A stretch of DNA of 64,000 bases. Origin: Ascidiella aspersa. Taxonomy: Eukaryota. The notes beneath the pieces were generated by a model. The model searched no databases. It saw nothing but the letters and a program-made list of their open reading frames with translations, and was not told the DNA's origin. The stretch spans positions 5,518,001 through 5,582,000 of the forward strand of contig OZ004614.1 of the NCBI GenBank assembly GCA_963924565.1, written 5' to 3'. Positions 9,554 through 36,700 of this stretch are shown one piece after another. Position 1 is the first letter of the stretch. Every line of letters begins with the position of its first letter. Both the position numbers and the translations under genes were made by a program.

Positions 9554-9718
9554 TCACCGCTCGCCGGCTCGCAGAAGATTTTCGAGCTTGCCTAGGTTCT
9601 CGAGGATCATGACATCACCGGGCTTGATCTCTAGCGCCACCAAGTAGCTGGCCCGGGCTTCGAGGTGCTTCCCCCGCAGGTGTAGGATGGCGCCGAGGTT
9701 CATGTGGGCGGAGGCGAA
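9554..9718 (-). CDS. TMTC2: TMTC2 last coding exon ([14 protein letters not shown]...LLRAGER*)
   Basis: AG at 9720-9719; TGA at 9556-9554. Confidence 0.92.
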   Translation of the reverse strand, partial: FASAHMNLGAILHLRGKHLEARASYLVALEIKPGDVMILENLGKLENLLRAGER

Positions 9719-12700
9719 CTGAAAGTGAAGGAGGAAACTTTGAGCGAAATGAGGAAACTATGTGCAGTTTTGAGCACTTCAACGAACCTTTTATTGCCAA
9801 CGCTGTTCTAGAAATTGTTGAGAACAATGCCAGAATCGTTTGCGATTGTTTTAAACCGCTTAAAAATGCATACTCAAGTAAAACAGGCTTAATCACTTTC
9901 GAAAACGAGCATTCAGGCTCTAATGTTAAAGATTCGAAAACGCACAATAGTGGTACAGAAAAAGTGCTTTTTGTACCGTTGGTTCAAGTTCCACTGCTTT
10001 CCTGTAAAGTTTTTCGGCTCCGTCGTAGAGTTTAGCTTGTCGGTGAGCACTAGCTGCGTTGAACACTGTCTCGTAATTGCTGCTTCCCCGGTTCAAGGCC
10101 ACCGCTTTCTCCATCGCCGCTGCTGCTTCCACCAGGCGACCTCTTGCGGTCAAGAAGCTGCCTGCAAAATAAAGCAAGGTGGCAATAGCGTTTTCACTAT
10201 CGCTGTGTAAGGTTTTGCGGAAATTTCGGCGCTGGTCTAGAATCCTACCACAACTTTTTAAGAGTACAGACCAGCGCTGGACTTTCTTATCTGAATTATA
10301 CCAAAAAAAGGACTAAAACTTTATTTGAAAAACGAGCCAAATTCTGAATAAGGGTTGGCCACCCTTTTCTTGTCGCTGGCCCAAGCCAAATTCAGAAAGG
10401 CCACGGCGAGCCGATGTATTTAAGTGACAATTTTGTCGGTAAAATGTGTCATTTGTAAGCATTTCATTGATATACCTGTGTTAATCAAAGGCGGGCCTTT
10501 GATTTATTTTTGCAGTGTCCATATTCAAAAGACACAATGGATTTGAGGTTCTTTACATTTTAGTAATATTTAAATTTGTGGGAATTATAATGTTAAAAGG
10601 GAATGTTGAAAGTAAATCACAATGGCGAAATCTACATACGGGAAATTTTGTAAATATTTTTAATAATTTTTGATACTTTTGACCCGGGTCAACTTAGAAC
10701 AACATGCCATGGTTAGCCAGCTGCTTGTTATACAGCATTGGAGGAAATGCACAAAAGAAACGGGCCGACGATATTTGCTCGTAATTTGTTTTTGACAAAC
10801 TGGATTTTGTTCTTTTTATAAGTAACGGGTCAACAATATTTACTTTTGTTTTCAAACTCTGCTTTTTTAATTTAGTAACGGGGCAATAATGTTTGGTTTG
10901 TATTTTTTTTTAACTGCATTTTTAGTTCATTTTATATTTAACGGGGCAAATTGTGTATATTTTTTTTCGAAAAAAATATAAAGTCAATTTTAAACTGGAT
11001 CCAATTGCAAATGCTTACTGTAGTGCTGATGGACCACGTGACTGTCTTCATCCAGTTTCAGAGCGTCCAAGTACAAGCGTTCCGATTGGTCGAACCTTCC
11101 CACGTGACTGAGAAGTCGAGCGTAGGTGAGGTGGGCTGTCACGTGATCCGGTTTGGATTCGAGAGACTTGCGGAAGAATTTCTCGGCCTCATCCGATTTG
11201 CCGACGAGAAAAAGCGATTGTCCTGATCGGATTAAAGTAAATCGTTGTTATAATGCAGTGGTTTTGCTAACACTAAAAATGAAAAAAGATATATTTTTCT
11301 CTTGAATCTCACTTTCCTAATAGACGTAGTAAGAATATCACAGCAATTACAGAAGTATAGGTATCATTTACGAAACGTTTAAAATGCTACCTATACTTCT
11401 GTATGGGCTTCGATATTTTACAACGCTTTACTACAACCTCCAACCATTGTGCCTAAAAATGTTATTACTTAGCAAAGAACGATTTTAGTACAAAGTTAAA
11501 TACAACTGTACAAGATATAGGGTTTCTGGCCGTGTAGGACACGAATAGCTTTGAATTGCTAAGCGATTTATCGCGTCGTCCCTCTAAAAAAACTTGGATA
11601 AAAATATTTTTGTGACTAAGTCTTCTTCGGAAAAAAAACAAAAAAACTTGAACGTAACCAAGAATAAGCGCTCACCAAGCATATTGTAGAGGCTGTGGGC
11701 TTTGTAGTCGGCTGGCATTAGGCGCAGTGCCCTCTGATAGGCCGAGATCGCTTCCACGTGACTGCCCTCGTCAGCCAATAGGATGCCGAGGTTGTAGAGC
11801 GCTGAGGTTTGGGCTCTGAGATGGGCTCGCGGATTACGGAGGTTCTCATCGCTTAGAGAGGCCGCTTGAAGGTAAATCTGCAAATCGAAAGGAACTGTTA
11901 CAGTTTGTTCGATTCCGGAATAATACACCTTTGTATTTCAATATAAATTTATAGGTGTTTAATCTATAGTTTAAAAAAGAGTGTAACTAAACTATCGTGA
12001 TTATTTTCCTCAAATATTTAGCTCGAAAAAGCATGTTTTTTATGCAAAACTATTAAAATACTATACTATAACAAAAAGTACTTCAATCAAGCTGTTGTCT
12101 CCGACAGACCAAATCACTTTTTTTGCATTTTTGAGGAAATAGTTTGGAAGCCAAAAAACGATATAAGGTAAAACGTCAATTTAGGGGTTTATTCCAACCT
12201 GTGAGATATACCTAATCAATGAATATAATGCCTGCAATGGGCATTTTGCTCGATATTTCGGAATAAACAACGTGTGAAGCACAGGCCGACTATTTTGTGA
12301 ACTCTACACATCAACTTAATAGATGTACCAAAAAAAGACATTATCGCCGTGCAGAAATATCGAACTGCGGTGTAAGGAGCGACGGTAGAGAGGATTATCT
12401 ACCAAGGGTAGTGATCTGTCTTACACCGACACGGAAGTAAGATAATTCCCGCTACTACACTCTTATCTCTTCCGACCTAGGCGAACCCTGCATCCTACCA
12501 CGATGGCCAAGAAAATTAAATGGCAGACAATTTTTCATCAAAGTCATTTTGACGCCTTTCCTAACTCGAGCGGCGGCGGTGCGGCCTCGAATTCAACTTT
12601 TCCCGTGAAGCAATATATGCACGACTTTTCATCCGTTTTGCTCTTTTCTTTTTTGGTGCAAACCGTGAGTTCGACTCGAGGCGCATTTATTATTGATATC

Positions 12701-15700
12701 GTCGCACGACAGAGAATAATACAGCGGCGCTCAACAAAGTAACAGATCGACCCTATCGAATTGGCCATCTGATATACCGCTCGCTATCGTAATGAGCCAA
12801 AGGATTAGAGAATTACCCGCATAGTGTTTCTAGAGACTGTTGTTTCGCACTGAAACGTATACTTTACAAAAATAGAATTAACCTGGAAGGGTCTACGTTT
12901 TTGGAGCATAATGGTTCGAGGTTGTAGTAAAACGTAATAAGAATATCAAAGCCCATACAGAAGTAGATAGCATTTTGATTGAAAATGAACAAAGAAGTAG
13001 GTATTTTTTTGTTGAAAATAAATAAAATGCTACCTACTCTGCATGGGCTTTGATGGTCTATGTTTTTTTGTGCCGTATTGGCAAAATTTGTCTGTTGTCA
13101 GATAATTTGCTTGTGTTTTTGTAATACAGCCAATGGCAATATTGAATCACGGCCTTGGCACGTTTTTTTATAACATTGATAATGTATCTGAACTTGATAT
13201 TGTCGATGTTACAATAGTATTAAAGACAGTTTGTACGTACTCTGTAATACATTTTCATTAACCATAAAGTTTTATGGTACTAAAAAACAGATGTCCAAAG
13301 AAAGGGCCGAATTTGCGCTATGAACTGTTTGCTTTATGTCGAAACATTCGGAGATAATGTTTGCCCAATGTAAATATTATATGTTAACCAGCTATTCCGA
13401 TTTCAAAATACGACTGATAGTGCATATTAGTTGATGTGCATTGTACATTGACATGATTGAAATTGCCGCTAAATAAGTGTTGAATCCGGCGTTGCAAATG
13501 AATAAAAAGCTGTAAAATTGGGTTGTTTCTAACTACAGTTTATTACACCGGGACGTTGTATATCTTTATGCTTTTGGTGGTATTTTTCAGTTTAAAAAAA
13601 CTTTTTTTCTGTTGAAAAAAGTAAACAAATAATATGGTACTTCTACACAACATCAACATGTTATCACAGATTTTTTAAGTAACCTATGGGTACGCATGTA
13701 CGCAATAAAACGACCCAAAACCAAAAACAACAAGAGAGTATACGGCCCATCTGACCGCCCTGTTACGCTAAATGTTGCTGAGTCATAGCAAAACCGCTTT
13801 TTGTGCACGGCCCATGTGCAAAACTGCAACCGTCAGCAAAAAAGAACGCGGCCAAGCGCGTAACGGTGAAAGTTTTTTCGACATGTGCCAAGAAATACGC
13901 CCGAACCTTTTACAGGTAAAGCGCGAATGCTTCAGTCGAGAACACACCATAAGACTCTCTAAAAAACAATATGTAAAGCAGGATATTTTATAATATCATT
14001 GTATTAAGACCAACGACATAATAAAGTCAAATAAACAGTAACATCAACGGCAGAATAAGACCGAAATTCGTCGGAATATGGCCCAAATAACGCCTCAAAA
14101 CTGTAGCTAGAGGATATGGCACGATCGGGGGCCGTCGGTCTATTTATTACGGGGGTTAGTTATGTACTTAGGGGTGAAGTTTGGGGTTAGGTAAAATGCT
14201 GTATAGGCCTGATGCTGGCCATTTGGGTTAAATTCAAACGAATTAAGGAATTATTCCGATTTAGACGTGATTACGATTATTATGGGTATCTCATTTTAGT
14301 CTTATTCCTAACTGTGTTTTATGCCGACTTTGATGTTGCTCTTATTTCGTCGTATGGCTGTTGGTCCCTTTAGTCGAAGTGTTAAACCACACAAAGACGC
14401 GATTCCACGCCAAAGTGAATGAAGCATCTTAAATCGCATTGCCAGACACGCCACCGCGAACCACGAGCAAAGGACTGTCAGGCGGAGACAAACACCTGGA
14501 CCGCAGTTGAAGCTTCGTTATTTGCCCAGTCGGCACGTCGCATATAGCGAACAACTTGAGTGAGCGAGTTTTGAAGAGGGTTTGGAGTGTTTTTTTGCGT
14601 AAAAACACTCTTCCATGCTTTTCGGGAATGCGGCCCTATAGGATTGTACGGCTGCTTACGAGAAGGTTTAATGAGTTTTGACCGTTGGGGCCGGGTTTAA
14701 TTTGGATAGTGTGTCGGCGTTTTTGTGTGCTAAGGATGGTTTACACTATAGACGCGTTTTGCTTTGGTAAAAATCTTACGTCGAATTGAAGATTTTTCCC
14801 ATTGGCCAAGAAAGAGGCCAGGAATTTTTGAGCAAGTCAGTAGTAGTCTGAGTCCGGTTCTCTTACAACATGTGTCCGTTAGGGAGCAGGTACCGCCACT
14901 GAGATGTGCCAAAGTTAAAATTACGCAAAGCAGATGGTAAAAGTATAACAAATTATCAGTACTTGGTGTTATTTCAAATTTGAGTTATGCTGCACCCCAA
15001 AAAACAGGTTTTCTAAGTTACTTTATTCATATAGAATAGCAGCGTAAACCTTGGGTGAGCTCCAAAAGTCGACAAAGACAGGTTACGAAGTTAGTTCGAG
15101 CATTATTCCTTTCTAATGGCATTTAAAAATAAGGTTGCTGCAAAAACGATTATAGGAATCTGTTTAAGATGAAAGAACAGTTTAATCAATAGATTAATTA
15201 TGTGTGACCTAAACAGAAACCTAATCTTAGTCACTTATTACATAATAATTTGATCTTTTACAATTGATGTGATTAGTTGTAAGTATGATTGGATTTAAGT
15301 TTGAGAGTGTTGAAGTATAATATGGTCAATAAGAAGAATAATCCCTACGCATTGTCCATTTGTTTGCAAAGGGCGGGGTGATGCCTATTGACAAACGTTC
15401 AGTTTGACATTGAAAACTATTGATTTAAAATGCAGTGCGGCTGCACGATCCAATTTTAGAATAATAAATGTTTCGAACGTAATTAAACCTAAATATAATT
15501 GACTACATATTCCATGAATAATTCAGTGCATTATAAGGCAGGTGAGCCCAATGCGCCCGTAACTTTCGCATCGCGTTATACACATGGCGCGAATATCGAT
15601 TGGTCTGTCTAAATTCGTACGTGATTATTGACTATGTGTCGGCGTGTATCCGTCCGCGATAGTTCGTGAATTACAATCAGCCAGTATTTCCGACGAGCGT

Positions 15701-18700
15701 GTCACGCACCTAATCTCTGCCTTGCAAGACTGAAATGCAAGCGAATATAATCAGTTTAATGAAATACACACACACATATATGTGAGTTTATAACTGTGAT
15801 CTAGACCTTCTGAAGATGCTGTTTGACTAACGATTACAGCTTACGTATCATTAGAAATCGAAAGCAGCTTCAGGAGGGCTAGATCACAGTTGTTAACCCA
15901 AATATGAGTGTGTGTAACTGTGTATCTTTCATTGAATAATTATATTGTACTACATAGCCCTCCGTCAAAGTGACGTTGCTTTTACTAACATAATGTACCA
16001 AGCACTGGCCAATGCTTGTTTCTCGACTCATCTCTGTTCCTGTGTAACTCAGTTGACAAAGCGACGGTCTCGGCTTGACCGGGTCGTGAGTTCGAACCTC
16101 ACTGCAGGCCATAGTTGTTTTTCAAGCCTGCCTTGCTTGCATATTGATAAAAAGATTCGGTCTGCGATGGCTTTCGATGATGTACGAACTAAATGAGCTC
16201 ACAATTTCGTTCGCAATTCAAATGATCCGCCCGGTTTTAAATATGTCCAACGGCGCACAAAGGATAGATAAAAACGGTAAAGTATAGTCGACAGTCTTCG
16301 TTTTAGGGATAGGGCTACAAAGGTAGCTGAAGCACCTAAATCCCCTTCTCAGCAAAGGCGGCTAAGTTACGAACAAATATGGACACTTCGCTCGTCTCGC
16401 CAAGCAGTGCGGTTGGCCTTTTTGTTAAGGCGACGCTTCAATATTTTAAGAGCCTTGTTCCGCAATGCTAACGGCTAGGGGCGGCAAATGACGAACACGG
16501 AAAGTTTGATGGGCGTGAGCCCGCGAAAAAATTTGCAAATCAAATGCAGTTCAAGAAAGTAAATCAGCGCAGAACCCTTAAGCCAGATTTGCAAAATGAT
16601 GGTTTCTATATTGTCGGTATAGTAAGAAAAAAAACTTTACCTTTTGAAAGACTAGTTTCGCCGATGTACTACTATAGAACAGATTACACGTTATATAACG
16701 ATTCGGACAACATAATGAAACAGCAAAGAGAGACCTAAAATAGCGTCTGTCGTGAAATATATGCCAAAATGCAACGAACCCCTTGTATATGCGCGTTGGG
16801 ATTAGGGAGTGTAGGGTTTACTGATGTCATTTGACATCGATGAGACAGGTAATCGTTATACAGTTTCTCAATTTATTTTGCGGTAAAATAAATGGGTGAC
16901 CTAATTTTACCAATCGAAACAGGGTTACGTTGACAAATCTGTATGACCCAGTGAATATAGCGTGTTCCCATCTCCAGGGAATTACATAATCTTCTATTGA
17001 CGTCCGACAATGCACTTAACGTCGCTATACTAAGTCATAACATAGACGTAATATTTTGTGTTACGTAATTCAGTATGTAGTTTTGACCCGTGGTTGGATC
17101 ATTATCATAGTTTCGTAGTGTTAATGTTAACTTTATTAGTGCAGATATGAGAGGTTATTAACTGGGTTCTGTTGACCTATAGGCCTAATTTTAGAGGATC
17201 CATAAAGGCCCCAAAAATATAATTTTGTAAATGAAAAAAAAAGTTTTTATTGAAAAACACGCTTTGGCGCCTTCTTCCTAAAAACGTTTTTAAAATTTAT
17301 TTTAGCTTTATCTAGGTTGAATCGAAAACAGCAGGTTTCCTAGGCCTACTTGTTTTATGACGTCATCTCTAAAAATTCCACGCCTATCCTGGTCCACAAA
17401 AATCAAAAACATTCTGAGTATATAGTTTACATAAAGTGTTTGAAAGTTCAAGCGTCGCATTATGCGGTCAATCTTTAGGGGCAATTCAAATCCGACCTCG
17501 CTTTCTCTAACATACAGTTTTGAACGTTACTCCACGAGTGCTCCTGTCAGCTGACCCATTGTATGGCGTCCCGGCTAGGCGCCGACTTTTCTTAGTGTTT
17601 GTCCTGTCGTCCGAAAGGCCATCGTAAATTGTTCGCTCAAAAAACAAACGCGTCCGGTGTTACCGCCAAACAACACACCGAGATTTCAGACCAGGCGAAA
17701 AGACCTGATGGTTAACGGCAACTTGAAAGCGTAGAAACAGTTAGGACAAATTTGGTGTAGGCGTCGTATATCGCATATAGTAATTTTTTTAATTTTTTTC
17801 TCATTTTAGTGGATTTACTTAAGTCGTAGGGAAAACGAAAGTTTAGTGAAGGTAAAGCTTTGTGGCTGGTTTGTGTTAACATTGGTCAAGAAGAAGCACG
17901 AGAATTGCAAAAGTTCAGCCCCCATGTGTTTTTTTAACACAACGTGAAAGTACACTGGGGGTTCCCAACCTTTTTCACACCGTGGCCCCCTATTTTTTTC
18001 AACCTTTTGAAAAAAATAAGAAATATCATTTTAATTTAAAAAACTGGTTTATACAGTAACCGGTAGTTAGAATGGTAAAATGATATATATATATAACACA
18101 TTGTGGTTTACACACTTATTCGTCATGTACAGATATGTAAAACCAAGCTTAAGTTAACTTTCATCACACTTTCTTCTTTTAGCAGGTGTAGCCATTGCGC
18201 AAATTTTAAAACATAGGCCCCCAGGTTGGAAACCCTTGCTATACAGTCTACATTCGGAAAACGAATCTTTGTTTGTCACGCGTTAAGTCGTAGGCTCGCA
18301 GCAAGTGTATAGTTAATGGCCGCATGTTGGCTTCAATGTAGTGCCAGTCGACGATATATTGCTAAATGATGACGTTCGCCAGATTGAGAACGTTGACGTT
18401 GGTCTTGAGATTACAAAGGTTTATAGCGTTTGCTCACTTGCCCCATTCACATTGGCTGATGGGAGGGAGCGAACAGCGGTGGTGTTTGCCAACTGTTTTG
18501 ACCGAAGTCTTTGACAGGAATTATGGCGAAGATTCCTCGAAATGACAGAAGGGCCAGCTATAAGTGCCAGTGTATTGCGAAACGGCCAGCGTAAGTTTAA
18601 TTTATAGGAAAAAAATACGGAATTTATAGCCGTTAAACAACCAAAAAAGCAATTAAGTTCACGTTTAGCGCCCAGCATCAAGACAGCCAAAAATGTGGAA

Positions 18701-21700
18701 GGTTTTGGTTGGGTTTTTTACGTTTTGCCTAATTTGTTTTTTTATCACTATTCTACTGACAAATATTTCCATCTTGAAATGGGGTTTTAGTGATTATAAA
18801 GCTCTGCGACACAAGTCTTTTCTGTGTACTCGGACCGGACAGTCTCAATAGCTGGCACTGTATGCCTGCGTATTGTCATAAACGAAAACAGGAGCCGTTT
18901 ATATGGCAAAAAGGGCAATTCCATTATGAGAAAAGTGCCAAAAGGTGAAAAATTCGCATGCAAGAGAGAAAGACTCCGAGTAATTATATTCAGGCTATGG
19001 TTTATTTCCAAGAATAGGATTTTTCGCAAGGTTTATCTAATTTACAAGGCCGCAACTGCTAGATGCATAACCCAGTGCATTTTAAGCCTCGTTTGACCTT
19101 TTTACTTGTCAGCGGACCACGTTCGGTTTCTACATGTACCTGAACCTCGAATATATCCAGGATGCCAGCCCCGGGTTAAACCCTTCTTACCCCAATTTCG
19201 GTACGACCGCTATCTCTCGCACTACGAGACAAACTGCGCAACAAACTGTTTGCCTTCGCTGCCAGTCACTCGCATTCAAACGTATGCGCGCAACCTTAAC
19301 CGTGGCAACAGCACCGGTGCGCGTGAATCGGGCGACGCCAACCACACGTCATAGTTGATAAGGCGTGACAACAAAACGCCAACTTTTAGCGTGACGTCAC
19401 AATGGGGTTGCGCGGGTTCGTGGCGGCGAACATTGAGCGGGAATAATTTATGCGGCGAAGGAAGGCCTTGCGCCGCTACAAAAGTGCATTGTGTTGAGCG
19501 CTCGGCATGTTCTTGCAACCAGTGTTGTAAACAAGTCATTTTGAAATGACTTAAGTCCAGTCAAGTCATTTGAAAAAATAACAAGTTGAGTCCCAGTTCA
19601 AGTCATCGGTTGCCCAAGTCTCAGTAAAGTCATTATGAAAGCAAGTCAAAAGTCTTGTCATTGACATAAAAGTAAACTGTAAAACTATTAAAAATTGGTA
19701 AACTCATCCGATTATAAGCAATAATTTAACTAAAAAAATAACACAAACGCAATATACAGCACTAAAAGTGTTTAATGTGCAAACTTTACACTTAATTTAA
19801 TCCCAAGTTATTTGACAAAATAACTTAAGTCCAAGTCAAGTAACTTATCCATAATACTTAAGTCAAGTCAAGTCATTTTGGTCAAACGACTTAAGTTGAG
19901 TCAAGTCATTTAAAAACAGTGACTTGAGTCATGGCAACACTTCTTGCAACTCAGACGAGTGTTTTTTTGTTGCAGATGCTTTTCAGCTCTTGTTAGGTCT
20001 TAAATGCGATCAATCCGCTTAATATACGCTCGCCTGATCGCTTTGTATTCTGGCCTTGCCGCAATTGTGCAGGAAATATGCAATAACTGCTTAGTGCTTA
20101 GACATAAGGACCATTGAGTCCAATATTTGTATCGTATAAAGACTGTCATTTCCCAATGGGTTTCGGAATACCCTTTTGTGCGTTGGATCACCGCTTTTAA
20201 TTTCAACAGTTTTCAGTACTTTCGCTTTGTAGAGTATTATCGGACCACTAAAGAGACCGAAATGGTCTACAAAAAAAATGCGTTTTATTAGTTTTGGTTA
20301 TTTTTTCATACTTGGTTGGAATAGCCAGTCACCTAATCCAGACATTTAAAAAAAAAAACTGTATGAAGTTTGACTTCAAACACCTTGTTAGACATATCCA
20401 AAAGTATATACCTAAAACATCGAGTCCAATATTGATATCGTATATAAAGGTTGCTATTTCCCAATGGGTTTCGGCATACCCTCTCTAAGTTAGATCATTT
20501 TAAATTAACCGGAGTAAATAACAGTTTCCACTGAATAAACGCTATCAATAAAAAACGCCGCCTTTGTACGGTTTGTAATGTAGCTTGATAATAATGAATT
20601 GCAAAGCCAAAAAGGTTGAGTAGATCGACATCATCTTGATTAAGACGTTTCTATACGAGCTTGTATCATCTTCAGTTAATCCTCAAGTCAAACGCGGTCC
20701 TTAAAGTCGCAAAAAACTCAAAAACCCTTCAAGCCTCAGTCGTTCGAGTAAAAAAAAAAAAGTTCGAGTAAACATTTGCCTCCACGCCTCACACAAGCCG
20801 TACAAAAAGTTTTAGCGCACAATCCACATAACGAAATGCACAGCAAAGCGAATGGGTGCTGGTGTTTTGAAACTCAATATTGCAAAATGTGCTCGCAATT
20901 TAGGCACGCATAAACACCCCTCAAGCCTAAAGCCATTTGAGTGAGAATTTACTAAAATCTATACTAAAAGTCTTAGCGCACAATCCACATAGTGAAATGC
21001 ACGGCGAAGCGAACCTGTGCTGGTGTGTTTTGAAACGGCACACCGGGCGTATGAAGAGATTCCTTGGTAGTGTGTAGTCATGCGGTTACGCATTTGGGGC
21101 CGCTACAAAGCCAAAGCGCCGATGCGGCTTAGAAAAGACCCCAAACGTGGCCGCAAGGAAAAAAGGCGCACCTATGTAGGCAACAAGTGCATTGTGTTAC
21201 GGAGGTCGCGTTTTTCCCGTTGGATGCGCACGAAAAGTTGCGGTGCGTCCGTGCCGAAAAAAAAAGAGTTTGCGTTGCAAAAGGGCTGCGCTGCTGGTTC
21301 ACGATTAGTGTACGGTTTTTGTAGAGTGGCGGTAGCGCAGGGTTGACCAACTATGCGAAGTGTTCAGTGCTGTTTTTTTATTCGAAACAGTTTGATGCTG
21401 TATTGCTCATTCGTAAAACTATCATCGCCAGGTTGCTGCGTGCATGTTAAAAACAGGGCTTTAGACAGATTTCGGGACCCCAACTGGCGGGTCCACTTGG
21501 CTTAGCAGCAGGCAATTGTCTGTTCTTGCGGCCAGAAAAAATGGCCGAACCGTCTGCAGTTGAATAGCAAACCGTCGCAGTCTTGGCGCTTTTTATTTGA
21601 TTGTTGCATTTTATGTATATTTTGTAAATTTAATTTTCCGACGGTGTCAAGCTTTAAATATCGTGAGGAAATCGTTGTGGTCTTATGTCCAGTTTCGGCT

Positions 21701-24700
21701 GAGCATAAGGTAAACGTTAAACCTTAAAGTAAGTAATTTTGTGTCGGTCTTAACAAACACAAACAGCGGCAAGGGTAACTAACGTATAAGGCAACTGTGG
21801 CCAATGGTGTGCTTTGTCGCTGTCTAAATTTGCGATTGCTGGTTTTCTTAAGCCAACCCAAGGTGAGTGTGGAAATTTTAGATCTCTAACGTAAATTTTA
21901 GATGCTCGTTGGGGACTTTGAAATCGAACAGCCATATGTCAAACTTGAGCAGTTATGATTTTTTGATCGAATATTAAAAGCATAGCTCGATTGATATTTT
22001 TTACATGCGATGGTTTTTAAAGAGCATGTCTTGTAGTTTATATCGTAAAAAAATTAGCGAGAAATCTCGACAAATAGGTCTAATATGGCTGAATATTAAT
22101 ATTCGAAAAAAAATATATATTAATATTTTTTGGCTAAAAGTGTGTTTGCTGGATTGACAAAGCCACTACAAGGAATGTAGAAAAGTTTCAGTTTATTAGC
22201 GGCACAACTATAGAGATAATGCCCGAAAACAATCTCTGCGCTTTCCACTGCTGATCGAACACGTGTCTTCTTTACTTAAAACGTCGCTGACACTAGAATA
22301 TAGACGAATAGGCAAGCCATTGATTTGCGCGCGGAAAATCCCAGAAGATCATATCTTTTTCGTCTATTTTCGATTATCTTCAATATCAATAAGGTTTATA
22401 ATCTTTAGGAGCGCCTATAAGCAATGTTATACAGGTCGGCTAGGCTTGCCGTGTCGAAAGTGATTTTTTTCGGGGCCTTAATGAGCGCTTTTCCTGCTGC
22501 CTTGGTAAGATAATATCGGGCCTCAATTTTTCGCAAGACAGTCTAACATGTTTTGGAGGTTTACAAGTAGAGTTGGACCGCGACCGGCGATGCTATCAAG
22601 CTTTTCGTGTTGTGCGAAGATCCGACTTGGACTTTCATCGATGTCGACTGAGTCCCAGCGCCAAACATACAAATAAAAAGGTTTAAATTAGGCTTTATCC
22701 ATCGCTGCCTGTAAAGGCCATGACATCCCTGCCATTATCAAACATCTACGCTTTTTTCATCTTCGGAACAACTGAGTTTGGAATGATACAAGCAATGACG
22801 TTTTTCTCAATGTTTGTGTTTTGATTGCTTGCGTAAATCCAAATTCGAGGGGTGGAAATTAATGTTAGTACGTTTTACGACAACAAACTGCGCTTTGTGT
22901 AAAATCGTGGCAATTTGTTCGGCCCTGATGGGCACCTTTAAATCGAGCTTGTATAAACAACAGATTCTATCGACAAGCGCTAAAATGCATATTGTTCCTT
23001 GTACCAAGTTCCGGCGCTGAATAGGTGTTAAACGCTCAGTGCGCAAATGCATGCGTACCAAGTTTAATTCAACGGAATTGACAGCTCATTATGGTCTATT
23101 TCACTTAATCTAGTGGTTAGCAAACCAAAATACTCTTTCCACGGTCAAGGCCCACTACGTAAAACCATTAAGAAAACAGGGGAGTATCCAATTTTTCGAA
23201 TGACGTTACAAAGTTGCGTTGAAAACAAGTATTGAAACACGTATTGTTCTCATGCGAAAATTTGCAGCTACAATCTTGTCTAATATCGCGCAGCGCGAAA
23301 AAAAAGTCGAAAACACATTTTTTTCGGGGGGCTGCCACGTAAAAGACATTGCACATAATAGCCCGCGGCCCACAAAAATGGCTTTAAAGGCCCACAGTTT
23401 TTCGACCACTGACTAAATCTACTACTTAAGTCATTTAAATCAGTTAAGTGCATAATGAAACGGCATTAAAAATGCAATTTCGCCCGATTCATCTAAAAAT
23501 CGAAAGGTGCCAGTGAAAGTGATATAGCCCAGTGACAGCCCGAATAGAAAATCGTTATATAGCGAATTATGTAGAGTAACGCGCATTTTCGCGATATTAA
23601 TGAGGCTGCGAATCGATGTTACGTCGATGCAGAGCGGCTTAATTCAGGAATCAAAGAAGAGCGGTGATTAAGCATGAGACAAGAGAACACTGTGGCCCTT
23701 GGGTGACTGCCAACTGCGTGGCAGCACAATCATAGGCCAAATTTCACGAAATTCTGTAACGCGGGGAAAAAGGGGATGGTGTAACGCGTGATACCAATCT
23801 CGGCGGGGGCGCTTTTGTTATTTTCGAGTTTGGGATACGCGCGTAAGATCTAATACGTACTTGCAGACGGATCTCGAACAATCTCCAGTGTGGGTTGCAG
23901 GACTAATAGACCGCAGGAGTAAACAGATCAGTTAACATGAAAAAATGACAGCTGCTGGCGTTCAAGACGCATCGCACTGAACACCATTGGATGGAACATA
24001 CGTGTGTATAAAACCACCCACCTCGTCACGGCGCTTCAGTGGGGCAAAGATATCAAAAGAAAGACGAAGTGAAACGATACGGGGAAAATGTGTTAAAACG
24101 GCTGGCCGATTTTGCCGCCGACGCCATTAGAAATTCCCGAAGGACAAGTGAGTTTGGTCAGGACTATACAAAGCTCAGCTGAGAAGGATAGGACAGCGAA
24201 TTAGGAAAACTTAGACGACATCGGTATTAAAAGCGATGCACCTGTTGATGGTGGCGTTTGGACGCGAGGCGTTTACCTTAAAGCCGATCTTTTCAGTCAA
24301 TGCGTACGGAACGTTAAAAAACAAAGGCAATGGTCAGAACTATACAAAGCTCAGCTGACAAGGATAGGACAGCGAATTAGTAAAACTTAGACGACATCGG
24401 TATTAAAAGCGATGCACCTGTTGATGGTGGCGTTTGGAGGCGAGGCGCTAACCTTAAAGCCGATCTTTTCAGTCAATGTGTACTGAATGTTAAAAAGCAA
24501 ACGCAATGATTGGCACAGGGCGATGTGCGCCCTTTTGCTTATCATGCCTGCCTGATCCACGTCGCCCCACTTTCTTAAACCGCAAAAAAAATCAGCTTTA
24601 AAAATACGGGCTAGTTCCCGTCCGCGTCTAGTTCCCGTCCAAGTCCAAAATGTTATTTATTTTCCACGTAATATTTGATTTTTATTGTTTAGTCCCGCCT

Positions 24701-27700
24701 TACAATCGCGTTCGAAAGATCACGCAGGAAGGCGGGCAACAAACGGTGGCTTGCTCCGGAGAAAACTAATATTTGACTTTAGGGCGCTGGATAAGTTGGA
24801 AGAATCGTTGTGTAGGTGTAACGCGTTTAGGCCTGGAGAAATTATTTGAAGCAGGCAGGCGAGCGGGTAAAATACTTAATAAACAATTTTTTGTATGTCA
24901 ACCAAAGAACGGTGGCCAATTTTGCTGTAATTTTATTAAAAAAAAACAATAGTTGGCCCATAGGATTTGCCATTTATAAATTGTAGATGTGCTGCTTCGC
25001 CGTTAATTTCCTACCAAAGGAAAACCGTTAAAGCACTATTAGATCTTTCTTGGTTTTGGTGCTATGAGAATTTCATGAAAGTGTATCGACGACATAAAAA
25101 ACACAATCACAGCACGAATCCGATCAATCTATAGTAAAGGAATGATAAAGGTTTAAAGCGGGTGATATTGGCTTGAAAAACAATTTAAAACATGTTTTGT
25201 TTTCAGTGGGTCCATAAAATTAGCCCTATAGGAAATTATTTTTCTTATCGAGTGAGGGGACGATTGCCTTTTCCGAACAATACACTTTAATACGTTTATT
25301 TTAAGGTGAACAAGCCTATAGCAGCAATAGAGAAAGGCTGTTTACGTTTTTAAACGCTACCAGGAAAAACAACGAGCATGTGGGCATGAAAACTCTGTAG
25401 CTTGCCCAAAGGTTTGATAATGGACGACATGTTGTTATTAAACGAGACCACGTCACGCAATATGACGTCATTCAGCGTCAGTGGAAACGTCACGGCGATG
25501 GACCAATACGCAAACGCCAGCGAAGAAACTGACGTAATTTCAGGTAAGTTCATGTCGAAACTCTAAAGCAGGGGTTCTTAAACTGGGGTTCATGCACCCC
25601 TAGGGGGTCCGTGGAACAAGTTTTAGGGGGTCCGTGAAGGCCTAATTGAAATGTTAGTGTATATTTAAGGAGTAATCAAGTTTTGAAAGAAAATAGTTCA
25701 ATTAAAATCAAACGGTTTTGCACTGGATGTATTTAGACTGAAATCAGTGGATTTCTCTAGTCTATTTAATTGTGACACCAACCTGTGACGTAATTTTTGA
25801 AAATCTCTTGCCTACCGTGGTCCACGCGAAGCCAAACAATTTCCATAGGCGTGCGCGATCAAAAAAAAGTTAAAGAACGCCTGCTCTAAAGGTAAGGAAA
25901 ATTTCCGGATTTGAAATCACAGCAAAACGTAACAAAAACGACGATTTACGATTTCTGGTTAATTTATTAACCTCGCGGAACTTTTTAAATCTTTTTATTA
26001 CTTTTGGAAAACTCGTTACCAAAACACCGCCGAACCCCATGCTCAATTGATCACACTTTTCGCTTTTTCAATTTTGTTTTTTCGGTATATTGCGGTAAGA
26101 TTTTAGTGGCGTTTATTAAGATATTAGCCAAGGACTGTTTTGTTCTTTTATGCTGTCAATTTATTAAAAAAATTTAAAGTATGTTGATTAGTTGTGCGCC
26201 AACAGACTAAATTTGGTACTTTTATAAGATAATGAGGCATTTTCGTTTATGGTGGATCTCGTAAAATTCTACCCAAGACCTTTAAATACGCCGTAAAAGA
26301 GTGAAGTAGTCTAACGTTAGGCATACAAAAAATAAAACAAATATTTTGGAGTATAATGGTTGGAGGTTGTAGTGAGACGTAGCGAGAATACCGAAGCCCA
26401 TACTGTATATAGGTAACATTTTGATGTTGAAAATGAATAAAGAATTATTCGAAACGTTCAAAATGATACCTATTTGTGTATGGGCTTTGATATTCGTACT
26501 GCGGATTAAAACAAATATTGCTCCTTAAGCACTCCAGTAGTGGGGGAATTTAATCACTGCTTGTAGCTGTAGAATACCCCGATTGCAAACCAGTACAAAC
26601 AGTGCTGTTCGTGGACATTTCAATCATTTCTTTAAGCGCTTAAAGAAACGAGGTCGAAAAATCCAAATCGATTTGTGTAATTTCGCGTAAAAAATAATCC
26701 TAAGATGAAGCTGCTTTTAGAATCAATCGGCAAAAGGGATAGAAAGGTAAAGGCTTTGGATTCCACGGATAGCGGCATTGCGTCAGTTGTACAACCTAAC
26801 CGTTGCTATTTCGCAGAGACGGCCGCCTATTGGATGACGCTGACCGGCGTCATAGTGGGCTCCATTGTGACGTTGCTGGGCACGATTGGCAACGGAGCCA
26901 CGATCGAGGCGTACCGCCGCAACCGCAAGTTACAGACCACCTTCAACCACCTGATTACCAACCTGTGCGTTATCGATCTAATTTATTCTGCCGTGGTGAG
27001 TTCTATGAGTAGGTCAAATGATTATCAAGTGTACCTGACTTGGAAAGACCGAATCTTAGGCTAATCGAGAGTGCATCAGCCAAATAGCGTATAGCGTTTT
27101 CATTTTTTTCGGAATTGCTAAGGTTTTTAACTATTAAATTTAATTTAAAATGCTTAAAAGGAAGTCATTTTGCTTATGCATCTGCGTTGTATTATTGTCC
27201 TTAATCGTCGTTTTCGACAAAGTTTTCAGCCATAAATAGCAAAACGTTGCCAAAGCTAAAAGTTATCTAATCTCTGTGCAAGGTGATAAACACTACACTC
27301 ATACGTAAAGGCATCATACATTTACACACTTCCAAATTTATACCGTGCTTTAAAAGTCTATATTCGGCCACGAATCGACAGTACAGCCAAGAAGTATATG
27401 CCGTTTTTTATCGATTTTTTAGTAGAATATAGGTAATGCATTTTACTACTAAATTGACAATGCTAAAAAGAAAGTTATTTTGTTAATGCATCTGTGTTGC
27501 ATTGCTGCTTCTTACCGTTGTAAGTTCTATATTACTTTCGATTGGCAACATGACAACAGAAGGTAGACTTGTGGTAGAAACGAGCAAGATTACTTGGCTC
27601 GGCCAAATAATGACGAACGGCATTACTTGATTGTTAGCGTAGTTTATACAAAGAAGGAAATGTGTATATAAGAGTAAACGATGTTCCAACTATTGTCCTC

Positions 27701-30700
27701 AGCCATTAGGCCCTTCAGGATGGTTTACAATTACATTGTTAAGAAAGGAAAATTTGCGTAATCACAACTGAACATAGATGGCTCGATAGGTTGATCAATG
27801 ATCCAGTTTGACAGCGGTCGTGAGTTCGAATCCTTGCTTGCACCAAAACAATTTAACGACCAGCTATAATGAGTTGCTATAAAGTTATAATTTACAAACC
27901 TACAGTTTTTGTCGCATTTTGTAGATCACAGATATTTGTATGTGCCGAAAATTTACAGGTGATGCCTCTGGTTCTTGCTATGGTGGGTAGCGGCAAGCAG
28001 ATCCTGCCAGACCACCTGTGCACTGCCCTAGGGTTTGCCTACTACTGTTCTATCTCAGCTAGCGTCGTCAATCTTGTATTTATCGCAATCAACCGCTACG
28101 TGGGAATCGTTCACTCGGCGCAGTAAGTAGAGAAATTTAAACTAAACTTTATTGGAGCATAATGGTCTGGGCCGGATTAACAATATGCTACTAAGGCTAT
28201 AGTCCTATAGGCCCTTGAAAAAATCGGCCCTGCAGTAAATAATTTCAATTTTTTATGTGTATTGTTATTACTTTTTGTATAGCTTGATTTGCAAAATTAG
28301 GCCAATCTCTGGTGAACAGCCTTAGGCGTACAGTACCCTTGATCCGGCCATGATATTGGTTCTAGGTTGTAGGAAGATGTAAGAAGAATATCAAAGCCCA
28401 TACAGTATGGAGCATTTTAAACGTTTCGATTAATTCTTCAACATATTTGTCGCGGTAAGCGATTGGCATATCTAATGTTGCATTGCTCGGTTAATCCGGA
28501 CGACAAGTTTTTCCCAAAAAGCGCAGAGTCGAAAAACATTTTGGCAATTATCTCAAAACACCAGAAATAGACCATTTGACTCGAAATAAGATTGTTGACA
28601 AAAAAGTCTACAGCAGCGCAATTAAAATAATGTCAATATTTGCACTAATTTATTTTGATTGCTGTCACTGTTTACTGAACAAAAAATCAACAAAAGTGGA
28701 TTTTTAACTTTAAAAGTCGATATATGATTTACCAGAAGCCGAATTCAGACGTATACATTGCGTAAAGTAAGCTTGTACGGGTACAACCACCCCGGGAATA
28801 GCACAATGGCAGGTTTGCGGATTACTGCGTGCAGTCGACCACGCGGCGATTATAGTATAACATTCAGTGGCAACCATGAATGCAGCAAATAGCTTTACAC
28901 TGCATAACTGAGTGTTGCAAGTACCATAGGCGTGCAACCTGAATCGCTCGAAAAATAGCACCAAACGTCGGCGAAGACCGGCATTTGCAAGCCAAAGGGA
29001 AGCTTAGGGGGGAATGTGGGCTGGAGGCGCAAAATGGTTACAGGAGCCATGAATAATGAATGGCGAAAAGTCGCAGGACAAACGACCGGGCTGTGGGCAT
29101 CGGGAGGCCGGCCAAGTGTAGAAGACTGAAACTTTGAACGAGCCACCTCACTTCAGCGTCGAAGCGGGCAATTAACGGCTTAAGCTATAGTTCGCTCCAA
29201 ATCGTCCGTTGCTTGCTGATTAACGACGGTTCACTTTTTGGTTGGTTCTGCAGCGTACGATGAAAGCCGGCCGGGAAAACTTTGAAACGGCCGAGTTTTT
29301 AAGGGATTGCGTTGCTTTATTTATTTATGCAACACAAACACGCGTTTTGTTAGTTGTTATATGCAACGTGGCCAACTTTTTTTTTGGCGCGTACGTTAAA
29401 AAGCTGCTTTAAGCAAAACACTTCGACTTATTACCAAACGTTTTACCCTTATTAAGTTTCTACTGAGCCTCACACAAAACTGTTTTTTTGGCAAGCTGAG
29501 TGTAAGGTCGATATGCTGAAGTGCGCGATCGTACAATATGTCATGCCTGGCGCCGTAAAAATTGCATTGTTATGCATAAGCCCGCTGCCAAATAAAGCGA
29601 TGCCTTCGCTTGGCCAAGTATATCCGCCAGCGAATTGAATTTCGAATTTCGAAGGTTTCTTGGCAATACCGCCCTCTACACCTGTAACAACTTGACTCTA
29701 TAGGAGCCGGCGAGGCTGTTGACAATAACGGATGTGCCAAAGCTAAACAAAGGTTATTTTCGGAAGCTGCAAACTTACTTAATCAGTAAGTGAGGCCAAT
29801 TAAACTCGGCCTTTTTCTTTGTAGTTTTACTGAGCTATTTTAGGGCCAGTTTCGTGAACCAAAACATAGGCCACACCTACAAAAAACGGTAAAAGATTCC
29901 CGTGGCGCGTTAAATTCCCTAATGGCGCCCACCCCAACGCATACGCATGGTTTTATTGAAACAATTTAACGATTAAAGGTAACTAATCTTGAACAACTTA
30001 AGGCAAAGCTCGATATTTATATACCAACAAATAAAATGGAACAATCTTTAACGGCCTTTAAATCATTAAGACAAAGACAAACCGATGAATGCCAGAAAAC
30101 AAAATCTGTTAATTTACACTTAATCATTTTAATCCTGTTTTAAGTTAAGCTTTGTTTAAAAAAATCTGTCAACTTAGACTTGGGCCGTTCAATCTTGTTT
30201 TAGGCTAAATTTTGTTTTACCAGGTTAATTGAGAAAGTTAGCGTTCTACAAGCTTGTAAATTAAAACGTAATAAAAGTTAAAGTTCACTTTATCGCGGGC
30301 TCGCCCTTGAAAATGTGACAGACAAAAACATATAATACCCAGCCAATTCCCGACGGCCGCTCACACGGACAGGGCTTAGTTGAATTGGCGTGTATCGCCT
30401 TTCACTGTTTTGACAATTTCCTATGTGAAGCGCTGCAGTTCGGCTCTCGTTTCCGTCTCGATATGGCACACACGCCAACTCGCTTGCAAAATTAATAAGG
30501 CGCCGCATTTGACACCAACATGGCGTAATGCCGAGAATAATATTTACAGATCAAGCGGCAAGCAACAACGTTTTCATCTCCGTCGATCGTTGGGCGCAAT
30601 ACGCGGTGCTAATATCGGACGTGGAAAGCTATATTTAAAGCGTCTTCAACAGGGTTCTTAAACTTTTTTTACCGCGGATCCCTAAAAAATATTTTTGCTT

Positions 30701-33700
30701 CGCGTGGACCACGGTAGGCAAGTAATTTTAGAGGTGACGTCATAAATTGATGTCACAATACAAATAGACTTCAAAAATCTGCTGTTTCCGGTCTAAAAAA
30801 ATGTGAAAGCGCAACAGAGCCTAAATATTCATTCAGTGCAAAAACGTTTTATTTTTAATTATTTTTTTAACAACCATTTTCTTTGAAAAAATAATTTATT
30901 TTAGAATATATACATTAACATTTCTAGTAGGCCTTCATGGACCCCCTAAAACTAGGTCACGTACCCCCAAGGGGTCCATGGACCCCAGTTTAAGAACTAC
31001 TGGTCTAAATCTAAAGGATACTCTTAAAGCAAATCGGCGAACTTGGCGCGCTGCAATTTAAGTGTCATATATCTCGGGAATTTGTGCCGCAGATAAACTG
31101 AATTTTTTATACAATCCTTGTGTTGGCTTTAGCAATCCAACAAACACAAAAATATTGATGAAATATTATTATTCATTGGAACATATAGGGTTGGAGGTTT
31201 ATATAGTAAGACGTATTAAAAATATCAAAGCCCATGCAGGCAGATATAGCTCTTTCTTAATTGTCAACATCTTTATTAATTTTTCGATGTTGAAAATAAT
31301 AAAAAATACTACCTACTTTTGTATGGGATTTGATATTCTTATTACGTCTTACTATTATTGTTATCCATGTTTATAAATATTAATATTCAGCCATATTTCC
31401 ACCCAATTGTCGAGCTATCAAGCTGATTTTTTCACGATATAAACTGCAAGCCATACTCTTCAAAACGAGCCATCGCTTATAAATAATATCGGTGTTGTTT
31501 TGCTTTTAATATTCCAACAATCTTAACCATCTTTTAATGGATTTCAGTGTTCCTTTTTATTTATCGTAATGTGTTGTTCTACTCTGTAAGCTCGCTGATT
31601 TTAAAATGCAATTTTACGTAACGTTGTTAAATCAATATTTTGGTGCATCACGGCTGTAAAACGAGTTGTTTTTCATCACACTATGTAGGGATTCATGGGC
31701 GACGTTGCAGGCTGCGTGGTTAATCATACGTTCCTGTTTGCATATAATCGATCTGTTTTGCGCCTTGGAACGCATCCCGCGTCCAATATGCCAAAAACCG
31801 CGGCTTTAATTTTGCTTTAGTAGGTCGAAGGTTGGGCGTTTCTATTCTGATCAGTAATTTTGCTTTTCCAGGTACCGCAAGATATTCTCAAAAGACTGCA
31901 TAAAATGGTGGCTGGTGGCGGTCTGGCTGTCCACGCCCCTGCTCTACATGCCATTCCTCATATGTAAGTATATGAAAGGGATCCAAAACCATTGGCAGCA
32001 GGGTTTCTGCGTGATATGTTGCTTTGCAACAAATCAAAGTAACAATAAATATATTGTTTATGTACTTTGCTTTACTTATATGAACTGGCGATGTCAGTAT
32101 TGGCGAAATACATGTTCCTTTAAAAAATGTCTAATCCTGACTTTACTCGGGTTTTTTAACTTTGAATCTTATTGTTAACATACGTGTCAGCTAAACAGTG
32201 ATCGACAAGCAGAAACCTGCTGCCAATAGTTTTGGATTCCATAAAGATACACCATCTTGTAGTGACTCATAGAATTACGTGTTGTCGCAAAAAATGTTTA
32301 CAGCCGACTGTAAAGTTCAATAAATCTGCAAAACGCCTTTATACCAAGCTTTAACCAGAATTTGTGTCTTGATCGTTTAAAATTGAGAAGATCATGGGAA
32401 ATTCATGTTGATATATCTATTTAAAACAAAACTTACTTCACCAAAAAGAAACAGTCACTTTTAAACCCGAACTTAGCATATCAATTCGTGATCGTATATC
32501 GTGCTTTCCAAATGGTTAATTCTTGCGGCGTTTACGTTTTACGAATTTTTGGTGATGATTTAAACCATTCCGGGGAAGTTTGTTTACGCACCATTGAGCC
32601 ACGCGGTTCGGTAAACGGCGAGTAGTTGTCGAGCAATCTCACGAACTCGAAATAAGGGGAGCCAATGTAGTTACTTTGTAATTCCGCAGGCACTGTTGCA
32701 GAAACGATTATAAACAGCGTCAACGCCGGTAAAATAGCGAAATCGGACAAAAAATGCAGTCTTGCCCTTTTTTCTAGTAAAAATCGCAATGCAATGACGT
32801 CAAGCAGATATTTGGAAAGTCCCGTAACACCAACTCTCTATCTGAGCTTCGCACGATTTTTGTAGTTGCTAACAAACTGAGACGCCCAATTTAACTAATA
32901 AATACAGCCCGAATCTAACTGTGGTTAGGCGTTGGAAGGGAAGTATTGGGAACCTTCAGGCATCGTTCGGATGTTGAAAATAAATAAAGAGTTATTCATT
33001 ACGTTCAAAAAGATACCTATTAACTTGAATTCTTACTACATCGTTCATTCTTTTTGTACAATCTTTGCTGACGGCCATATTTGTGTCGAAAATATGGGAA
33101 TCGTGTGTGTTTGACGACAAATGGTTTTTCTAATGCCGACAAACTTTTGCACAACTTTTGGCCTAATAAAGAAAGGTAGCGCGATATATTATTTAGTAAA
33201 AAAATATGACCGCTCCTTTTTTTAACCGTGGTTGAAGTCGTAAACAACATTAATTTTTATGATGCGTTATCGTTCTCTTATGGTTTTTACGGCGTTGTTA
33301 GGTCAGTGAAAAAGGCGAAAACACTAAAATCAAATCAATAATAAATCTTGTCAATTTTGCACTATTTAGTATTGTTTTTATCACAGCCCATTGTTTTTCA
33401 ACAGTGGACAATGCCATAAACAACATTCACTTTTCATGACGCGGTATCATTCTCTTATAGTGTTGATGTACAGTAAGGCCAATCAAATCAATCAGCAAAA
33501 ACACTAAAATAAAATCGGAAAAAAGTCTGTCAACCTTATACTATATTTAGTAATATTTATTGCCACCGATTTCCTTTTAACAGTGGACGAAGCCGTAAAC
33601 AACATTTAGTTGTATGACGCGGCATCGTTCGCTTTTAGTAATTATGGCGCCTGTAAGGTCAATCAAATCAAAAACGCAAAAATAAAATCGACCGAAAAGG

Positions 33701-36700
33701 CTGACAGCCTTGCGCGGCGTGGCAGAAGCAGTGACGTCACTACTGGTCGAAAATAGCCTGTTTTCGGACTCGTTCGCGTTTGAGTTGGTCACCTGGACGC
33801 GTAGACAGAGCGACGTTTGGGGTCAAAGCGAACTGGGCACAGGCGCTTTGCGGTCATTGTATGCCGCAAAACGGGCAGAGGACGAGACGCGAATTGCCCA
33901 ACGCCGACTTTCCGTCTACTGATTTCCGCCGGCTTTGAAGGTTGGGAGAAAGCGGGCAAATGTTTAGGATTGGTTGCAGAGCGCCTTGAGGCCTTTTCGC
34001 ATTTAAGACACGTGTATGGTACAGCGATTATGCTGTTGCTACCAGGTATAGTATATACTGAAAATAAGTTCTTCTGGTATTTATTTGTTTGTCCGACATT
34101 TCGGTTAACTAGTCAGAAAGCCTTTATCAGCAAATTTGGACAACTAGATAATTCTAGTTTTCTAATTCAATAAATTAGAGCAAAATGTGAATAATTCTTA
34201 TTGTAATCTAACTTGTGAACTGCTTGTATGCTCTAAATCGAGTTAGTCAATTCATCCCCGTATGTACTTCAGCCACTTTGATACCGCCTTAAATGCACTT
34301 GTCAAATATCTCAACGAACGCTCCTTTTTACAGTCGATTCGTTCGAGTGGCGAGAATCGAGCTTGCGATGCGCATTGTCGTCCAACAAAATGACTTCCCA
34401 TGCGCTCAAGTATTACCACATCGCCGTCAACGTTTTGCTGCAGATCCTACCAGCCATCGCACTCGTTGTATTATACAGGTAAGCTTAATTTTTTTTAAAC
34501 ATTTTCTACGATAAAATATTTCTAAGGCGTTTTGTTCCAAACATGTATTTTCAAAATTCAAACTTCCCCAATTGTTATAGTTGAGACTAAACGAAATTAA
34601 ACACCTTTGCCTGGTTAAATAGCTGTGTAAATGTCATAACATAACGTGATGCGTAGAAATGTAAAACCCGCAGGCTTAAATCTACCAGGCTGTGGAATAT
34701 TGCCTTATTTAGGAATGTGCGAAACTGTTCAAGAAGTGGCAAGGGCAACGGAAAAGGCAACTTAATAGAACAGAAGGCAAAACGCTCTTAAGGTGTATAA
34801 ATTTGCTGTAATCATTTTGCTACTTAAGCCTAACTTGGTTCTAGTAGGTAGATTACGGTTTACCGAGTATGACAACATGCAAAAACTCTGTAAATCAAAA
34901 TCTGTCTCTATTCTAATTTTTAGCCATTTTTAACATACCATTAAGATTTGTGTTTTGCCGGACACATTTATTCTGTGTTCACGCTTTCATGTTTTCAAGT
35001 ATCACGAGTTTCCAAACGAGCGACATCAGAGATGATATAAAACGCAATAAACAACTGATCACACTGTTGCACTAACAGAAAAAATAAAGTTAATCTCTAA
35101 TCATAACCATAAGGATGGAGATTTTAATGCTGATTGGAAAGCTTAGATCAGTCATGCTTCATCATCGCATCGGTACTTAGCCCGCAAAAATCGATCAGCT
35201 TAGTATCTCAGCCTATAGCGCTGAATGCCGACAGTCACAAGGGGTTTAACTAGACCGCTATTAATGTGGATCACGGTGCATCATCAATCAGCGTGCCAGG
35301 ATTACAGGAAGCAAAAACATGTTTTTTGAGCTAGACGAACAACGCAATTTGGCGTTCCAGGAAACCGGGTCATTAGCTTTGAGCGAATTAATGCAACTTG
35401 ACTATTGTCTCTTTACTCCATGAGCAAATTAGATTAACAGAACTAAAATGTTTGACTTATTGCTGTTTTTTACAGTATTGACATTGTCTGGCCTTGTTGT
35501 TATGTTCTCAGAAAAAAAATGTTCGATTCCCAATATAGGTATTAAAATTTATAAAAACACAAAAACTATATAATGTGTGCTTCGTAAAACATCATACAGG
35601 TTTCTTAGGATTTTGACAAAAATAGCAGAAAAGTTTACGCAATAGCCATTCCATCATCATTGTAAAATTAACTCTAAGATAAAATTGTAGAACTATTGGT
35701 AAGTGCGTGTATATATACCCGAAAAGAGTTTGCCAAGAAGATCAGAAACGTCACTTCGCAAATACTGTTATCTCTATAGCTCGTGTGCCATTCACGATCG
35801 TACAGCAAGTCAAACAAAAAGTAAAACTGTAAAAATAATGTTAGCTCTACCAGGCAACATATCAATAGATAGAAATCGCTCTTCTGGTGTAAACGAAGTA
35901 TAAACCATCGTTTCGACATCAGATACCAGTTGAACTTATCAGGGTTAATAATTAAAACGAGAACGCGTTTGCCAGGACAATATATATAAGTTAAACGTCA
36001 CATAATATAATTAAACAGGGCGATCCTGCGTAAGGTCAAGCGATGTCGCAAATCGGTCGAACACCACCCGACCATCTTCTCAGCGACGCCCACTGGTGGA
36101 GACGCGAACGAGTCGTCCAAGGCCGCCGGAGGGCGTCGACCGAGCGTGAGTCGAGCCACGTCGCCGATGCGTCCATCGGTGGATGTACACAACAACAACT
36201 CTTTGCAAATCTTGTCTGATAAGAAGTCAACAATGTCCTACCTCCAAGTGCCAAACGGAGTTTGCGCGGCTGTCCAGCCTGCCAGCAGCACCGTTCGGGA
36301 AAAGCGTAAGTGATTTTTTGTCACGCAAAAGAAAATACGACTGCGTCCGTTTTGTTGCGAATTGTTCCAGACGGTCAATTTTCTGGCGCATTATTTTAGC
36401 AATGCGAACAAGCCAAACGCAGTAGGGTTTCGTACAGCGTCTTGACTAAATAAAGTTTCCTAAAAACGATTTACAGTGATTTTGTTCTCACAATACCCGT
36501 TTGCAAGCAGAAAACGGTTGAAAACATCCACAAGAATAAAAATCTCTTTCTCTGCATATAGGGCAGAAACTTTTTGGCTTTGGTCTTGTACTATCTCCAG
36601 TTAATGTATCGAAACGTCTTAATCAAGATGATGTCGATCTACTCGACAGTTTTGGCTTTGCAATTCATTGGAACTTTTTTTTGATCAAGCCTCTCCTATC

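Follow-up and report, generated by a model that had tools for sequence, protein, structure and literature searches.

A minimal hammerhead motif in a TMTC2-like intron of Ascidiella aspersa is a damaged piece of a truncated Penelope-like element

The 64,000-nt stretch of Ascidiella aspersa DNA analysed here (assembly GCA_963924565.1, contig OZ004614.1, positions 5,518,001 to 5,582,000), hereafter the window, carries a multi-exon gene on its minus strand that is probably TMTC2-like, the paralogue name being taken solely from its named vertebrate and Daphnia matches, which are TMTC2 or TMTC2-like (Table 1). The motif under study lies within the intron at 11881-40563 of this gene (between the exon ending at 40564 and that starting at 11880), and since the TMTC exons are themselves on the minus strand, this copy is sense to the TMTC2-like pre-mRNA, as a preliminary description of the locus had it. 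The same large intron also hosts a rhodopsin-type GPCR gene nested in antisense orientation (26681-39650, plus strand), with weak PF00001 matches under the curated cut-off and a last exon that stays open for 693 aa. Another TMTC intron contains an intronless major-facilitator transporter ORF on the strand of the host gene (46243-47694, minus; PF07690, 483 aa). Repeats of other kinds are scattered through the window, namely 166-bp tandem repeats at 41309-41928, a family with a 33-bp period at 3544-3751 and 19788-19949, and a fold-back repeat with a 50-bp period at 42044-42374.

Table 1. Host gene, hammerhead motif and copies of the two element families in the window (element numbering sets G12 of GAAAC to 0)
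Feature	Position	Strand	Details
TMTC2-like host gene (putative)	9572..56783	-	exons from 56783 to 9572; PF08409, TPR repeats
Minimal type I hammerhead motif	20638..20681	-	descriptor match and letters; C11.1 is A (20652)
5'-truncated PLE pseudo-LTR fragment, 119 bp, single arm, tail partly kept	20562..20680	-	element -29 to about +87; 90.8% identical to L125
Inverted stub with 5' half of ribozyme	36585..36607	-	inner end -31; 20/23 letters match family, by eye
Sense arm of second family-B insertion, no tail	36606..36669	+	element -5 to +58
Fourth family-B insertion	50205..50337		tailed arm (+14 to +93, minus strand, 50205-50284) and oppositely oriented piece (-58 to -2, with deletion)
Tailed sense arm, truncated inside core	61172..61282	-	element -17 to +93
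Short inverted arm, completes palindrome with 61172..61282	61285..61334	+	element +9 to +58
Family A copies	2415-2553, 11326-11448, 12899-13054, 26343-26517, 28353-28438, 31176-31354
Family A copies, further	32970-33021, 37152-37263, 50733-50880, 59290-59417

The motif is the sole match of a type I hammerhead descriptor within the window. Read on the minus strand from 20681 to 20638, its letters form the CUGAAGA/GAAAC/GUC core originally proposed (with CUGAnGA, GAAA and NUH present and all unpaired core bases intact), six complementary pairs in helix I, the sixth from G at 20681, and a G-A mismatch at the base of helix II; cleavage is predicted between 20644 and 20643, the position named before. 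G12 of GAAAC is 20651, and the A that occupies position 11.1 breaks the G10.1-C11.1 pair, which makes this copy a damaged member of the minimal hammerheads of Penelope-like elements (PLEs). An alternative U-A closing pair for helix II is possible. The term 'canonical', used in the preliminary description, does not suit it, since GUC directly 3' of GAAAC means that the loop of helix III is absent, as in the known loop-3-less minimal PLE type, and an Rfam scan yielded no hammerhead family at E<=1, its five weak matches being chance hairpins. The minimum-energy fold predicted for this copy is a different one from the hammerhead (z -0.47). The accompanying suggestion that such a hammerhead could operate only as a dimer is judged to be right. 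Cleavage by dimers was reportedly described by Lunse et al. 2017. The hammerhead at 20638..20681 is thus genuine, though minimal and damaged, and the PLE stub that holds it is an ordinary one.

Aligned to an ORF-linked copy (L125), the window copies of this family (family B) do not resemble a palindromic element whose arms are fixed and whose centre holds a ribozyme. The 20638 motif lies in a single-armed fragment with no inverted partner, and no target-site duplication was seen there by eye. A second copy at 36605, antisense to the TMTC-like gene, had been said to lack the 5' half of the ribozyme; the half is indeed absent from that arm but is not simply missing, as it occupies the adjoining 36585-36607 in inverted orientation. 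What had been taken for a core deletion in the copy at 61207 is the junction of a 5'-truncated sense arm with an inverted arm. The insertion at 50205-50337, in which the 50205-50284 arm is devoid of a hammerhead core, had been missed altogether. These copies are PLE pseudo-LTR ends that were truncated and inverted independently of one another.

Judged from its reading frames and their homologues, the element is an endonuclease-bearing Penelope-like element (EN+ PLE). A sequence walk upstream of the motif in other copies reaches the end of an ORF, and the motif follows an endonuclease-end query at 23 of 30 loci, at a distance of 117-188 nt that is mostly 146 or 158 nt. One copy (L121) contains a PF00078 reverse transcriptase (E 2e-9), and the C-terminal frame of another (L094) is 48-51% identical to the reverse transcriptase (RT) homologues P0001 and P0002, the latter (48% identical to the element frame) carrying PF01541 (GIY-YIG); Pfam run on the element's own frame returned no direct GIY-YIG match. 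RT homologues number 899, full-length ones measuring mostly 800-850 aa, and no zinc finger was seen by eye in the RT-EN linker at two loci (L094 and L106). At the other end of the ORF, the frame from the ATG at +17 is the best of 12 against an N-terminal profile of related ORFs (E 0.002, a weak score), with its counterpart in a second family (family A) coming next at E 0.005; the match is weak but fits a pseudo-LTR that would include the first ORF codons. Among the copies examined no full-length element with two direct pseudo-LTRs flanking the whole ORF was found, and as none of 177 tail matches continues into the ORF or into shared sequence, the junction of 5' pseudo-LTR and ORF is one that we infer. 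By eye, other insertions can be seen to break up the longest PLE copies: an apparent inverted-repeat DNA element occupies L121:3725-4725, and a hAT-like frame adjoins copy L115.

The traits supporting the PLE reading are all known from PMC4209133, PMC3846280, PMC8557442 and PMC11167929. We consider it highly probable that the motif is the minimal hammerhead of a PLE pseudo-LTR, and that 20562-20680 is a truncated, mutated insertion, likely inert in its host intron. It is one of many hundreds of PLE end fragments in the genome. The motif pattern has 43 exact matches in the 308-Mb genome, compared to 0 for a reversed control, and about 30 of the 43 represent a single locus repeated by duplication on C7; exact matches to a 20-letter core pattern number 262. 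Searches at the DNA level returned 1747 and 1632 first-look candidates, 40 of each being scored, figures that are not copy numbers.

The state of the ribozyme in the family as a whole was derived from 167 arms anchored outside it, 89 of which retain element sequence upstream of helix I. Every core base is kept in 51 of these 89 and the G10.1-C11.1 pair in 74, so that the family consensus has this pairing and the master an intact core, and in all arms but one (88/89) the extra base between 9 and 10.1 is U. With intact copies this common, the idea that the window copies complement one another toward an intact consensus falls away. Helix I of the family comprises five pairs followed by C.C (78/89). 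At position -30, 86 arms have C and a single arm has G, so the sixth pair, which is present in the 20638 copy but is not the family state, stems from its 5' junction or from a point change; two subfamilies have a C-A mismatch in the same helix. Helix II has five pairs, and essentially no compensatory change or covariation was found among the 89 arms. Core positions are no better conserved than non-core ones (93% vs 94%), so that selection on the genomic copies is not apparent, in keeping with neutral decay. These features echo the minimal hammerheads of metazoan PLE pseudo-LTRs (Cervera and De la Pena 2014, PMC4209133), which share the type I topology, absence of loop 3, palindromic 15.2-16.2, extra base between 9 and 10.1, G10.1-C11.1, 5-bp helix I and occurrence mostly as single truncated copies. 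The differences from that description are a helix II of 5 bp here vs 7-8 bp in Schistosoma, and the loss of C11.1 in the 20638 copy. According to the same source, minimal PLE hammerheads show no cleavage as monomers and cleave weakly as dimers.

The palindromes found at many loci follow a rule of their own. The 3' ends of family-B arms are bimodal, falling at about +60 to +72 or +90 to +95, some 30 nt apart. Leaving aside 8 unclassed cases, 68 of 70 among 78 head-to-head insertions combine one long and one short end, so that the 30-nt tail is on one arm alone; the remaining two have two short ends, and two long ends never occur (0/70). In sets not chosen on the tail, and after removal of near-duplicate loci, the one-long-one-short arrangement holds in 53 of 55 vs an expectation of 50% (p 4e-14), and among 85 loci chosen by tail alone (a set overlapping the 70 insertions for L129-L158) an inverted partner is present in 52 and is short in 51 of them. 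Inner junctions are scattered from -243 to +55, and flanking duplications of 10-14 nt accompany 21 of 52 inverted insertions in a hand count made without a control. The palindromes are head-to-head 5'-inversion insertions with scattered junctions, and an inverted 5'-truncated partner together with a 30-40-bp tail at one end alone is known for PLEs, as PMC3846280 and PMC8557442 describe. The tail itself corresponds to the two internal start sites of the anole element (PMC11167929).

The preliminary description implied something else, a palindromic element in its own right, non-autonomous and resembling a MITE or a retrozyme, with the ribozyme at its centre. The frequency of an inverted partner in the tail-selected loci (52/85) and the strong hairpin into which the 61200-61340 copy folds (z -13) would both be natural for such an element. 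Against this, arm lengths and junctions vary between copies, the arms are asymmetric in those 68 of 70 cases, the upstream sequence continues into an RT/endonuclease ORF, and tandem 170-400-nt arrays are absent from the loci fetched; nor did family-B copies prove to have the fixed, symmetric terminal inverted repeats of MITEs. This alternative is already largely refuted, and we regard it as very improbable.

The points at which the insertions begin may report on the RNA that was copied. Among 130 arm ends of the tail-selected set (5 duplicates dropped), those within -34..-30 account for 19 of the 52 arms reaching -30, vs roughly 1-13% for each other 5-nt step downstream, a pile-up located about 30 nt 3' of a TATA box and immediately before the ribozyme. 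Starts at -31 also make up 29 of 100 listed matches of the core pattern (262 in total; hand count), a pattern that leaves out most copies extending upstream. Base -31 is 30 nt after TATAA and inside an initiator-like word. A cleavage fingerprint is not apparent in the DNA, with 1 of the 130 ends at +8 and 7 at +6..+10, no clear excess. An end cluster initially noted at +8/+9 was discarded, as it came from a query that has this junction, and the site is also one of helix I microhomology. The likely cause of the -34..-30 pile-up is that reverse transcription ran off the 5' end of an RNA that was uncut and probably capped. Literature on a pile-up of PLE ends at a capped start, searched in the main texts of freely accessible journals, yielded nothing relevant.

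An extra G, which would mark a capped 5' end, is seen at family-B ends in 9 of 26 cases (3 duplicates dropped; not significant, p 0.18). Family A, a second PLE family in which an endonuclease C-terminus lies upstream in 3 of 30 loci (L234, L248 and L250 of the set L225-L284) and whose tail has 770 exact genomic matches, gives a sharper signal. Its hammerhead has the U3-A8 core variant, as known in Schistosoma Cercyon, and its inverted partners are short in 19 of 19. A sharp 5'-end pile-up again falls about 30 nt after the TATA box, -27 accounting for 11 of 49 ends. In 8 of these 11 the preceding letter is a G not present at that place in the element, and a G also stands at 40 of 66 ends at that base in 100 listed matches (of 696; hand count, p 3e-7 against 30% expected), a few of which may derive from the inverted arm.

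A different cause of the -34..-30 pile-up is conceivable, namely stalling of the RT at the ribozyme fold, helix I microhomology, or a splice acceptor (CAG ending at -34), any of which would oppose the run-off step alone. The pile-up does abut the 5' strand of helix I, an intron of D. virilis ends at helix I (PMC4209133), and family B shows no G excess. However, the mode is at -31 (in the hand count of listed matches) rather than at the -33 predicted by splicing, the upstream letters differ between copies, the spacing from TATAA is 30 nt, and family A with the same geometry does carry the extra G (in both of its counts). We thus consider these causes unlikely as a whole, at perhaps one chance in a few, and for family B stalling or microhomology stays a rival to run-off.

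Evidence at the RNA level comes from one raw-read run of the same species (X3), of which about 6% was read and which derives from an ordinary cDNA library. Coverage of the TMTC exons is mainly in the orientation that a minus-strand gene should give. The L125 pseudo-LTR collects 1127 reads in both orientations, with no site where many begin or end, and 94-97% of reads on the motif or pseudo-LTR continue into unlike sequence, which indicates that they come from copies inside other transcripts. Over the 20638 motif 97% do so, and reads whose ends hang loose at 20680 match the upstream letters of the element itself; no read in this run was assignable to the 20638 intron copy. In the part of X3 read, no pile-up of read ends was found on the window or the pseudo-LTR, and a library of this kind could miss cleavage ends. 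The run gives no support for cleavage.

A further possibility is that the 20638 copy has been co-opted as an intronic ribozyme that cuts the TMTC2-like pre-mRNA, alone or in trans with the substrate strand of another copy. Its sense orientation within the intron, its intact unpaired core bases and six helix I pairs, and a self-dimer structure that can be written at -6.1 kcal/mol would allow for this. Yet the monomer is devoid of helix III and has lost G10.1-C11.1, its hammerhead fold is not the predicted minimum, and the imposed dimer (-6.1) is far above the best co-fold (-18.9). On this strand the nearest other family-B arm (50205-50284) is without a core, and the one after it (61172) is situated past the first exon that was identified. 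According to PMC4209133 minimal PLE hammerheads are inactive as monomers with low dimer activity, and according to PMC11167929 the anole hammerhead needed the PLE protein. No evidence for a role of this copy in the host gene was found in this analysis, and co-option appears extremely doubtful.

How the stubs arise can be outlined as follows. The protein of the element would nick AT-rich DNA and start cDNA synthesis at two internal RNA sites, one per target side, and the joining head to head of two prematurely ended cDNAs would give rise to the palindromes. The likely start of the uncut RNA about 30 nt behind the TATA box would explain why many cDNAs end at that point. In an active element, cleavage after GUC would require either a dimer or assistance from protein, which is what has been published for other PLEs. 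The stubs would form a genomic record of PLE insertion, with two cDNAs made from two internal sites on an uncut template and many running off its capped 5' end before the hammerhead, an account whose chances of being right or wrong we see as evenly balanced. If true, the ribozyme sits at the start of the mRNA, and cleavage takes away the cap along with about 38 nt immediately preceding the start codon, making it a switch on translation or packaging rather than a maker of template ends.

Much of this is paralleled in other systems. EN+ PLE insertions (Arkhipova 2013, PMC3846280; Craig 2021, PMC8557442) resemble those of family B in having a 5'-truncated partner in inverted orientation, a tail of 30-40 bp on one side only, target-site duplications close to 10 bp, a TATA box and initiator in the pseudo-LTR and first ORF codons within it, whereas here most insertions are only 100-300 bp and none of those found is full-length. 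In Anolis, the Poseidon element PAc (Frangieh 2024, PMC11167929) likewise has its tail set by a pair of internal start sites, uses uncut RNA as its template and yields no RNA-seq reads that stop at the point of ribozyme cleavage. The two differ in the start of the ORF, which in PAc is at helix II and 26 nt 5' of the cut; family B has an ATG at the same place, but its frame ends after 9 codons, and the ATG at +17 is the likely start. Main-text literature combining hammerhead, Penelope and ascidian contained no report that we could find. Minimal hammerheads in PLE ends occur by the thousands across many animal genomes, and the damaged 20638 copy by itself matters little. Family B as a whole lends some in vivo support to the internal-initiation model of PLE copying, and the near-strict one-long-one-short rule, together with a pile-up of ends before the ribozyme and not at its cut site, leads to specific testable predictions.

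A likeness also exists to the non-LTR retrozymes of animals (PMC7229834; bioRxiv 10.64898/2026.07.22.740005), which share a type I hammerhead in PLE-related short repeats. Retrozymes are described there as tandem 170-400-nt units with canonical hammerheads and circular RNAs, unlike the dispersed, minimal family-B copies. A cluster on C7 (2.37-5.48 Mb; L010-L030, L127, L128), where about 30 near-identical copies of one family-B stub recur at a spacing of about 50 kb, was considered as a retrozyme array and ruled out because its copies lie some 50 kb apart inside a duplicated unit. This unit is 88-94% alike over 3 kb, and a frame near the stub copies resembles, by eye, a fatty acyl-CoA reductase exon.
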